Shown one piece after another: positions 7,193-63,447 of a stretch of DNA of 64,000 nt. How positions within the stretch are numbered: the stretch's first letter is position 1; each line of letters begins with the position of its first letter. This stretch comes from Escherichia phage ECP2301: the sequence record OR880646.1; one strand, written 5' to 3'. The notes under the pieces were generated by a model. That model made no database searches, was not told the origin of the DNA, and saw only the letters and a list, made by a program, of their open reading frames with translations. The position numbers and the translations under genes were made by a program.

Positions 7193-7876
7193 TTATCGTT
7201 TTGTTGGAAGAGACAGAGGATCGCACTCTTCCTCTGACGGAGCATCTTCAAGACCCATAGCATACCGCAAAGCATACTTCATCATCAGGATGTCTTTCGC
7301 ACAGTCATGAATAGAATCATGTGCAACGAATCCATCTAAAGTTCCCTTTGGAAGAGGACATGTAGTCATATCACGAACAAGCAGAAGTGCTTCAATTCTG
7401 GTACGAATATCACGCTGATTCCAGAATTTACATGGTTCTAACTTAAATGTATCAAGCTCATTCTCGGAAACGCCGTTAAGACGTTGAATATCACGAATGA
7501 GATCAACTAAAATAGGAAAATCAAACGACATTCCACGGCACCAGCCCTGAGATTTCCAAGGATCGATATTATGCGCATTGATGTAATCATTAAATTTTGC
7601 AATACCATCGATAGTGCTTACATCTTCATCTGATGGCGCAATATTTTTTCGAGCTTCAGGAGATTGATTTTTCCACCATTCGATAGTGCTTTTAGTAAAA
7701 AGACGATGTCCTTTTTGGCTTTTTAAATCAAACTTGATTTTAATGCCGCGTGAAACTAATTCATCAAATGTTTCAACTACTTCTGGATTAGGGTCAAAGG
7801 CAATAACAGCCAAATCAATAACAGCTGCCTTTTCACCGCTTCCCATTGTTTCAAAATCTATAATAAAATCAAACAT
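7193..7876 (-). CDS. dexA: exonuclease A (DEDD-type 3'-5' exonuclease), 227 aa
   Basis: N-terminal DFET exonuclease motif; length 227 aa and position upstream of dda match T4 DexA. Confidence 0.8.
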   Translation of the reverse strand: MFDFIIDFETMGSGEKAAVIDLAVIAFDPNPEVVETFDELVSRGIKIKFDLKSQKGHRLFTKSTIEWWKNQSPEARKNIAPSDEDVSTIDGIAKFNDYINAHNIDPWKSQGWCRGMSFDFPILVDLIRDIQRLNGVSENELDTFKLEPCKFWNQRDIRTRIEALLLVRDMTTCPLPKGTLDGFVAHDSIHDCAKDILMMKYALRYAMGLEDAPSEEECDPLSLPTKR

Positions 7877-8118
7877 TAAATTTTCCTCGCTAAATCGCGA
7901 ATTTGACCTACAGTATAATCTTGGATATAAACTTTATTAATGGGCTCATCAATAAATTTTGCCATAGATTCAATATCTTTTTGTATTTCTTCAAGACTGT
8001 ATACTATCTTTAAAGCTTTTTCGCGAATAGTAACATTATCAGGTCCTGAATTTTCTTGGATGACAGCTTTAACATTTGTCATAAGAGATTTAAACTGCTG
8101 CAAACTTAATTCAATCAT
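7876..8118 (-). CDS. hypothetical protein, 80 aa
   Basis: ORF; track start is GTG, moved to internal ATG. Confidence 0.35.
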   Translation of the reverse strand: MIELSLQQFKSLMTNVKAVIQENSGPDNVTIREKALKIVYSLEEIQKDIESMAKFIDEPINKVYIQDYTVGQIRDLARKI

Positions 8119-8371
8119 TAATAACCGCCTTATAAAGATGGCTAATTTCACTTAAAACATAATCACCGATTGTAACAGTTTTCACTTCGCCGCAAAAGAA
8201 TTCTAACGCAATCAAATCTCGTTCAATTTCTTCCAATTGAAGCATTAACTTGCCTGATTCAATTTTCACGTTTTTGCGATTTTTACTATAAGCTATTTCA
8301 TAAATTTCGCTCACTTTATCTTGAAGCAGATAAAACTGGTCTTTAGTTATTTCCACGAATAGCTTCCTCAA
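8111..8371 (-). CDS. hypothetical protein, 86 aa
   Basis: ORF; first codon appears to be TTG, start uncertain. Confidence 0.3.
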   Translation of the reverse strand: MRKLFVEITKDQFYLLQDKVSEIYEIAYSKNRKNVKIESGKLMLQLEEIERDLIALEFFCGEVKTVTIGDYVLSEISHLYKAVIND

Positions 8372-29717: not shown

Positions 29718-29735
29718 TAAGGGCCGAAGCCCTTT
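29718..29735 (-). other. UUCG-tetraloop stem-loop between gene 45 and gene 44
   Basis: GGGC-UUCG-GCCC in the 45-44 intergenic space. Confidence 0.4.
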
Positions 29736-60340: not shown

Positions 60341-60924
60341 TGCATTCCGATTACGAAAAACTGCGGACGAGTAATACCACCAATGCAACATTTAATATTA
60401 CAGCAGTAGTGTACAGTGTCAATATGGACGCTATAAATCTTATCCATATCAGGAGATTTAACAGGCTCATCGATTATATACAAAATCCGCGAAAGCGATA
60501 AACCTCTGAACTTGCTTCCTTTATTACCGATAAAACTACGGACAGAATCAGTAAATAAGCGGAATCGAATATCATCACTAGAATAACGAGAAAATTCTTT
60601 TTTAATGTGGCCTGCAGAAATTTTAGCGTAAGCTGAAGTATTAGAAAGAACAATAACTGTTCCACCATCATACAGCCAATTAGCAGCAAAGTTAGTCACA
60701 GCAGTTGATTTACCAGATTGACGTCCACCATCTAGTCGAAGTGTACAATATTGTTTAAGCAAGTCTTCAAATGGTGGGATATAATCGTTTTTACAAATTT
60801 CTTCTACTCTAGCATCAGAATGGTGTGTAAAAGCATTCATCAGGGATAGATAAGGGCCAGTTAAAAATGTTCTCATTTTATTATCTCTAAATTTGGGCCA
60901 TTCCATGGCGCATGAATTGTCCAT
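60337..60924 (-). CDS. small P-loop NTPase (Walker A GGRQSGKST, Walker B ILYIIDEP), 195 aa
   Basis: ORF with Walker motifs, next to the internal-protein gene. Confidence 0.45.
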   Translation of the reverse strand: MDNSCAMEWPKFRDNKMRTFLTGPYLSLMNAFTHHSDARVEEICKNDYIPPFEDLLKQYCTLRLDGGRQSGKSTAVTNFAANWLYDGGTVIVLSNTSAYAKISAGHIKKEFSRYSSDDIRFRLFTDSVRSFIGNKGSKFRGLSLSRILYIIDEPVKSPDMDKIYSVHIDTVHYCCNIKCCIGGITRPQFFVIGMQ

Positions 60925-61030
60925 TTTCTGTATTTACCCATTACCGCACTCAGGCTCGACCTTATTACAGGTTGGCGGGAATCCCTCATAGAATCATGAG
61001 GTCCAGCTTGTTCCCATATTTCTTATTTGC

Positions 61031-61989: not shown

Positions 61990-62520
<531 letters not shown>

Positions 62521-62962
62521 TTAAAAGAGGCTGTTCATTATTCGGTAAAGTGAAGGGCCCATCACATATTGCCACTGAGTACGAGGAATAAGAGCAAAAG
62601 CATCCATCTCTGGAATCATAACGCCATCTTTATTTTCAAAATAAGACTCACAACGGCAATTTCTAAACATCTCATGCTCTACTGGAATCGTATAATAAAA
62701 TAACTGTAAGTCTTTATTACTAGAATATTTAAATACACCTAGGTCTTCTATAAGGTCTGGATTATAATTGCTAAAGCCAGTCTCTTCTAAGCATTCTCTT
62801 CGTGCTGCATCTAGTGCGCTTAAATCAGAACTTTCTACACGCCCCCTTTGGAATATCCCAGCGATGTGTCATCATTCCAGGCTTACGAGAACCAGTAACT
62901 CGTCCCATAAATAAATCTTTATCTTCTGTCATAAAGATAATACCAGCTGATAGTGTTTTCAT
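62521..62962 (-). pseudogene. nudE: NUDIX hydrolase gene interrupted by a +1 frameshift in a G5 run
   Basis: Frame 1 gives MKTLSAGIIFMTEDKDLFMGRVTGSRKPGMMTHRWDIPKG then stops after 45 codons; removing one G restores RVESSDLSALDAARRECLEETGF (Nudix box) and the rest of the protein to the stop at 62521. Confidence 0.7.
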
Positions 62963-63447
62963 TTTAATTTCCTGCATTCAGTGATAAAGTTATTTAAATT
63001 TTGAGTATATTTCTTTTCATCAAAAATCTTTTGCTGCCTACGTAACCGCCATGGCATTTCAATGAACACGCACCATATTCCTGATAGTACTGCTGCTGTA
63101 AAAATATTAACAAGTATAATTAAAAGAATCCAATCTTCCGTTCTGCCTACTGGACTTTCTCCAAAGAAGCAAAATACAAATGATGTCACAGGAAAACTAA
63201 TAATATACCACAGAATAACCTTCTTATCTGTGAACCAATCAGCGTTCGTTAACTTAGCACGACCATTTTGAATACACACGAATTTATCATCTGTTACAGT
63301 AGATGGCTTAACTGCTTGATATCCCATTCTAAACTCCCTAATTAATCGTTTCTTTGTATCTTCAGAACAGCCGCTCCAGTCAACTCTATCAACTGAAATG
63401 CCATCGTCCCCATCATCTAAATCATACCAGCGAGTTTTTAAAATCAT
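62959..63447 (-). CDS. membrane protein, 162 aa
   Basis: Hydrophobic helices; C-terminus ...FITECRKLK similar to next ORF; stop overlaps nudE start. Confidence 0.45.
   Translation of the reverse strand: MILKTRWYDLDDGDDGISVDRVDWSGCSEDTKKRLIREFRMGYQAVKPSTVTDDKFVCIQNGRAKLTNADWFTDKKVILWYIISFPVTSFVFCFFGESPVGRTEDWILLIILVNIFTAAVLSGIWCVFIEMPWRLRRQQKIFDEKKYTQNLNNFITECRKLK

Follow-up and report, generated by a model that had tools for sequence, protein, structure and literature searches.

Does Escherichia phage ECP2301 carry a broken nudE gene and, if so, by what kind of event? As deposited (record OR880646.1), the gene starts normally and then runs into an early stop codon, and dropping one G from a short homopolymer restores its frame. 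A first reading, made from the sequence alone, had offered three options for this extra base, namely, a homopolymer sequencing error, a real inactivating mutation, or a slippage-prone site. We followed up these options in the window, i.e., the whole stretch of 64,000 nucleotides that was analysed, which covers the initial 64 kb, from rIIA onwards, of a Tequatrovirus (T4-like) genome. Among deposited genomes, ime09, ESh26, PP01 and others come nearest, with an identity of approximately 96 to 98%.

A single inserted G interrupts nudE at the first residue of the Nudix box

The genes e.2, nudE and e lie on the minus strand in the order that is conserved in the relatives (Table 1). Translation of nudE from its ATG gave MKTLSAGIIF...HRWDIPKG, followed by ACRKF and a TGA at 62827..62825. 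The stop that the sequence-only reading had placed 45 codons in, after DIPKG, is indeed present, and the start that it had proposed holds as well, since the ATG (62962..62960) overlaps the e.2 stop (TGA, 62961..62959) as ATGA. The reported GGGGG run was also found in the window sequence, where the site reads CCA AAG GGG GCG. The five Gs are the last base of the Lys39 codon (AAG), the Gly40 codon (GGG) and one extra G. Past the run, the +1 frame gives RVESSDLSALDAARRECLEETGF... and contains no stop for 106 codons, up to a TAA at 62523..62521, as had been claimed for the gene with one G dropped; this remainder carries the REUXEEXGU core and the catalytic Glu pair. Minus one G, nudE encodes a protein of 146 codons. 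The lesion consists of this single inserted G, and nudE does not contain a second, compensating indel.

Table 1. Coordinates of the features at the e.2 - nudE - e locus
Feature	Position	Strand	Remarks
e.2	62959..63447	-	162 aa; PF26896; stop overlaps nudE start as ATGA
nudE 5' fragment as encoded	62825..62962	-	45 codons (MKTLS...DIPKG + ACRKF) + TGA
G5 homopolymer with extra base	62842..62846	-	only gap in nudE alignment
nudE 3' remainder, +1 frame	62521..62841	-	106 codons, Arg41 to Phe146, + TAA
Two TATAAATA motifs	62511..62518 and 62498..62505	-	in 36-nt nudE-e spacer (62498..62518)
Gene e, T4-type lysozyme	61990..62484	-	164 aa; intact; own AGGAGG ribosome-binding site

A second in-frame ATG is found 15 nt upstream, at 62977, and corresponds to the T4-type start. 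Its use would yield a truncated product of 50 aa rather than 45 aa; the better ribosome-binding site (AGGA) belongs to the ATG at 62962. Separate translation of the 3' part was ruled out, since its frame holds no ATG, GTG or TTG ahead of Met98 (ATG at 62670). The sole open reading frame (ORF) called in this frame encodes 49 aa (MFRNC..., 62521..62670).

The repaired 146-aa protein matched Pfam NUDIX (PF00293) with 52.2 bits, a score obtained only after removal of one G. By comparison, the 45-aa product as encoded scored 11.6 bits, which is under the gathering cut-off of 21.1 bits, and the 3' part alone scored 28.9 bits. The repaired protein falls into phrog_1185, "nudix hydrolase" (E = 5e-73), and by tblastn it is 98.6% identical to the ime09 protein (144/146) and 96.6% identical to that of T4. 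Together with the e.2-nudE-e order, these matches confirm the assignment of the gene as nudE. T4 NudE.1 (NP_049737) resembles the present gene, once repaired, in its position between e.2 and e, in its noncanonical Nudix box, in its phrog_1185 membership and in sequence. In contrast to T4, the gene in ECP2301 is interrupted after Gly40, for which T4 has a GGC codon and a run of three Gs (G3). The two records also differ in that T4 nudE is annotated from the ATG located 15 nt upstream (MQEIK..., 151 aa) and does not overlap e.2.

We then compared the repaired frame with the Nudix box pattern GX5EX7REUXEEXGU. The box reads G40-RVESS-D46-LSALDAAR-R55ECLEETGF63; its REUXEEXGU core is exact, and its first half has an Asp where the pattern has Glu and is longer by one residue. 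An alignment including the Deinococcus structure 1sjy located both peculiarities also in T4 and in all Tequatrovirus copies, the spacing being canonical in other genera. The frameshift falls at Gly40, the first residue of the box, and this Gly is the only box residue that stays in frame as encoded. The residues E64 and E65 of T4 (151-aa numbering) correspond to E59 and E60 in the 146-aa numbering and lie 19 to 20 codons past the shift. Because the catalytic Glu pair is downstream of the shift, the encoded product of 45 or 50 aa, which lacks the REx2EE catalytic residues, is predicted to be inactive, and the allele would be null.

Two substitutions in nudE are private to this phage, and both are nonsynonymous. 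One of them, A32T, falls on a variable residue; the other, L71I, changes a residue that is conserved in 90% or more of the family. They give a weak hint of relaxed constraint. We rejected relaxed selection as proof of a true pseudogene, since there are only two substitutions and A32T affects a variable site.

The neighbouring genes were inspected as well. The TATAAATA motifs in the spacer between nudE and e match the T4 late-promoter consensus. Since gene e has these motifs of its own together with the AGGAGG site, its expression should be independent of nudE translation, provided that the predicted late promoters are active. At 62220-62233, gene e carries four substitutions within 14 nt that are private in comparison with 15 genomes and change KLKPVYDS to KLNSVYNS. 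We found the identical lysozyme encoded in 7 further contigs whose DNA is only approximately 95% identical, which suggests that this patch is mosaic and does not consist of new mutations. Upstream, the long, 162-aa form of e.2 that overlaps the nudE start is found here and in many relatives. In the T4 record (NC_000866), e.2 is annotated with 102 aa and ends 161 nt ahead of nudE (locus L012, 1192-1352). In T4, the DNA immediately preceding nudE is still similar to the 3' end of the long e.2, and the T4 reference may thus carry a truncated e.2.

The G5 allele and other nudE lesions among relatives

The length of the G run was compared between ECP2301 and its relatives. The gene has 442 nt here and 441 nt in ime09, AndreasVesalius, KRT47 and Aplg8, and the sole gap in the alignment is the G run. 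The +1 frameshift that had been proposed inside the Nudix box was thereby verified as an insertion relative to 441-nt homologues, at the codon that specifies the box's first Gly. Counts of the run in T4-type homologues, which the sequence-only reading had called for, gave GGGC (G3) for T4 and G4 for T6, which matches a 35-nt query over 34 bases with one gap. More generally, the flanks match exactly in T6, RB33, RB51, RB68 and ime09 and span one base less, indicating G4. In the 24 loci that were fetched, we read GGGG, GGGC, AGGC or GGGA at the site. Variation of the Gly codon is limited in these loci to its synonymous third base (GGG, GGC or GGA), which argues that the residue is under selection in the relatives. 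Of these loci, 23 have an open 146-codon nudE frame; in the remaining one, the gene is broken at another site.

Homologues sharing the G5 run with another downstream frame would have spoken against a lesion, and we therefore looked for them. In a collection of 50,697 phage records, G5 had no gap-free full-length match among the 648 records matched by the 35-nt query, nor among the 32 records matched by a 71-nt query. In IMG/VR, no copy of G5 and three exact copies of G4 were found, and both truncated products (45 aa and 50 aa) were absent from the exact-product index. Moreover, nudE is intact in ten contigs with an identical e.2 and in six with an identical lysozyme. Scans of metagenome_contigs and genome_contigs matched neither G5 nor the G4 control pattern (which had three N/R positions); because the control was also unmatched, these nulls carry no information. 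The absence of G4 from the scans was seen although IMG/VR holds an uncultivated viral genome (UViG) of JGI sample 3300010279; likewise, GenBank E. coli assemblies hold T4-like contigs, yet the genome scan matched none.

An independent assembly of the same lineage was not found by look-ups of the truncated products, the 49-aa ORF, the DNA polymerase or the lysozyme. The 49-aa ORF led only to REP2, in which nudE is broken elsewhere. Hundreds of assemblies share an identical DNA polymerase, which is thus useless as a lineage marker. The lysozyme protein is common to the 7 contigs mentioned above, and the divergence of their DNA indicates other lineages.

Several other phages carry single-nucleotide lesions that truncate nudE in otherwise complete genomes, differing from the present one in site and type, and none of them is a G5 insertion. 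REP2 (OQ174501) and REP3 (OQ174502) have a common G3→G2 deletion located 13 nt upstream of the present site. One G is gone from TGGGAT in both records (OQ174501.1, locus L023, 2711-3150; OQ174502.1, locus L044, 239-364), leaving a 41-aa product that the REP3 record names a "nudix hydrolase". Both records have a length of 167,921 bp and may essentially represent one phage. In vB_EcoM-ZQ3 (MW630116.1, locus L045, 130-600), nudE lacks 1 nt past the Nudix box (C3→C2 by our own reading), and the truncated gene is annotated as a 76-aa "nudix hydrolase". In scaffold_14 of YOKO23-1 (ENA ERZ28666444, 167 kb, locus L048, 1086-1300), a T4-like genome assembled from a metagenome, codon 20 of nudE is changed from GGA to TGA. 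This nonsense change is a substitution and, therefore, not a homopolymer artefact; judged by its sequence, it looks like a natural nudE-null allele. The gene call in YOKO23-1 starts at Met30 (P0002, 117 aa, in a cluster of 20 member sequences).

Other unusual forms of the gene were noted. In vB_EcoM_WFK (MK373775.1, locus L046, 257-685), a gene of 142 aa begins with approximately 48 residues that show no relation to NudE and stand in place of the N-terminal strands, and another chimeric N-terminus is found in cluster P0003 (13 members). P0005, a nudix hydrolase of phage CJ20 with 224 aa, has an N-terminal extension of approximately 73 residues that is unique in the family and probably reflects a mis-called start or read-through from the upstream gene. 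P0026 (NCBI "NUDIX hydrolase [Escherichia phage T4]", 92 aa, from a 159,752-bp contig) changes frame at more than one place, and the nudE product P0029 shows many scattered substitutions. Both look like products of noisy assemblies, in which case erroneous nudE calls exist in public data. In an even sample of 60 drawn from the 984 records with a NudE relative, nudE was aberrant in two.

Mutation, record error or recoding

The rest of the window was audited for signs of an error-prone record. Comparison with ime09 and ESh26 revealed only five places with a frameshifting indel that differs from both genomes, nudE being one of them. In a diverged patch at approximately 15.6 kb, the indels compensate and the ORF is open. 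The intergenic indels at 29719 and 51115 were rejected as error signatures, since they are common alleles with exact matches in many deposited phages. The +1 homopolymer insertion at 60924 was rejected as well: the T run concerned (60924..60927) immediately precedes the vs.8 start, and its length is not constant among other phages (sb4, NHEP36). On the plus strand, this TTTT is one base longer than in 15 genomes; the vs.8 start codon is at 60924..60922 (minus strand). The run has the same length in sb4 and is one base longer in NHEP36, indicating that the length of the spacer varies naturally. The annotated length of vs.8 itself ranges from 179 to 200 aa between records. Apart from the one in nudE, the small indels checked that separate the window from ime09 and ESh26 all have counterparts in deposited phages.

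By this audit and a scan for gaps between ORFs, no other broken gene was found in the 64-kb window. The ORF-free gaps at nrdH, dexA.2 and modA.4 were rejected as broken genes, since intact ORFs with GTG or TTG starts occupy them. The window and ESh26 have two overlapping ORFs for dexA.1 and dexA.2 (8111-8371 and 7876-8151), whereas ime09 has a single dexA.1 of 480 nt (locus L005, 8960-9439). The difference from ime09 is a 1-nt indel at approximately 8122 of the window; the ime09 gene is either fused or has a single-base problem of its own. Homopolymers of at least 5 nt number 441 in the window, including 63 of 6 to 7 nt, and the nudE run is the only anomalous one. Runs of five G or C occur six times, and the other five agree with ime09 and ESh26. 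On these comparisons, the assembly shows no apparent general signature of homopolymer errors. Moreover, the lineage has 13 private substitutions in approximately 4 kb relative to 15 genomes, which marks it as a natural lineage of its own, where private mutations are to be expected.

We favour the explanation that the extra G is a real and very recent G4→G5 slippage mutation that inactivates nudE, to which we assign about an even chance of being correct. The closest nudE sequences carry G4, and one slippage step thus gives G5. The independent nudE lesions of REP2 and REP3, ZQ3, WFK and YOKO23-1 also speak for a real mutation, as does the lack of further broken genes in the window. Replication slippage, i.e., the Streisinger mechanism, would have added one G to the GGGG at the Gly40 codon. 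Streisinger-type frameshifts at short homopolymer runs were reportedly first worked out on the T4 lysozyme gene, which adjoins nudE; the lesion in ECP2301 resembles them, since here too a mononucleotide run is longer by one base (+1) and is soon followed by a stop that is out of frame, and it would not differ from them in mechanism. A ribosome coming from the normal start would meet the TGA five codons after the shift and produce the 45-aa (or 50-aa) peptide. Active NudE would then be absent, except for what an occasional spontaneous +1 slip of tRNA-Gly on GGG-G might yield. Very little time would have passed since the mutation, given that the 106 codons downstream remain open and hardly differ from those of working relatives. 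It would be tolerated because NudE is auxiliary, and the phenotype would be a modest lysis delay and nothing more, gene e being unaffected. The presence of the extra G in the phage DNA, its origin by slippage and this phenotype are what we infer. The points against a real mutation are that the allele is a singleton and that the downstream frame shows no decay, giving it the same appearance as a one-base error in the record.

Homopolymers are a classic place for such record errors. In that event, the phage DNA would read GGGG with an intact 146-codon nudE, and the fifth G would be a homopolymer miscall in the consensus. We regard this as quite possible, if somewhat doubtful. The uniqueness of the allele among all sampled relatives is consistent with a miscall, as are the fully open rest of nudE, with a protein 98.6% identical to that of ime09, and the location of the lesion in a homopolymer, the window having just six 5-nt runs of G or C, this one included. 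Noisy nudE calls in public data (P0026 and P0029) point in the same direction. Moreover, the phage is annotated as encoding a hydroxymethylase and glucosyltransferases that modify cytosine, and cytosine modification can disturb the calling of C and G on some platforms. However, the window lacks any other broken gene and any other indel without a counterpart in other genomes, the 63 longer runs that are the usual site of such errors are all unremarkable, and the other five G/C runs agree with ime09 and ESh26. Of the three options left by the sequence-only reading, mutation and error both stand, while a conserved or programmed slippage site is not supported.

For such a site, G5 would be real and useful NudE would be made by +1 slippage of tRNA-Gly on GGG-G or by transcriptional slippage, or else G4 and G5 would form a reversible toggle; we consider this very improbable. 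If the P-site tRNA-Gly moved by +1, from GGG onto the GGG that overlaps it, the wild-type K-G-R-V-E would be restored exactly, and traces of the full-length protein are therefore conceivable; in addition, the AGGGGG string resembles the Shine-Dalgarno-like stimulator of prfB. Sites of the prfB type combine a slow or stop codon in the A site with a Shine-Dalgarno-like stimulator located approximately 3 nt upstream. In nudE, however, the codon after the shift is GCG, which is neither a stop nor notably slow, and AGGGGG lies on the shift site itself, not ahead of it. Nor does the UGA located five codons further on provide an alternative, since it follows a UUC that is unable to re-pair in the +1 frame (UCU). 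Five Gs are also short for efficient transcriptional slippage or phase variation. Furthermore, the shift site and its two-frame arrangement are not conserved: G5 occurs in 0 of the 648 matched records, and a single frame suffices for NudE in 23 of the 24 loci. The run was also rejected as a recurrent hotspot, since the other nudE lesions lie at different positions. Programmed recoding of nudE is thus not supported. One version of the toggle would have a lineage with the GGG codon switch NudE off (G5) and on (G4) at an appreciable rate, trading NAD and NAD-cap hydrolysis and faster lysis against a host-dependent cost, with low-level slippage on GGG-G supplying residual enzyme in the off state; this is slightly less probable still.

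Dispensability of NudE and meaning of the lesion

NudE.1 was the first enzyme of a phage for which decapping of NAD-capped RNA was demonstrated in vitro. In vitro, T4 NudE.1 hydrolyses NAD, NAD-capped RNA, FAD, ADP-ribose and Ap3A, and a T4 phage carrying NudE.1 E64,65Q is viable and has a similar burst, with lysis approximately 15 min late; the role of the protein was termed auxiliary and nonessential, with reference to an earlier T4 lacking the gene (bioRxiv 10.1101/2024.04.04.588121). The nudE lesions in deposited genomes, described above, support this view of the gene. The functional catalytic Glu pair is gone both from that mutant and from the product encoded in ECP2301, and by this likeness a viable phage with late lysis would be expected here. 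The two differ in that E64,65Q is a full-length inactive protein, in contrast to the peptide of 45 to 50 aa in ECP2301.

The nudE lesion is an ordinary single-base frameshift in a known auxiliary gene. No new mechanism is involved either way. If the extra G is an error, only the annotation changes, to an intact 146-aa nudix hydrolase. If it is real, its value lies only in providing studies of NAD-capped RNA during phage infection with a natural NudE.1 knock-out, i.e., a wild comparison for the engineered T4 mutant, and it would add to the evidence that nudE is dispensable and occasionally lost in nature.
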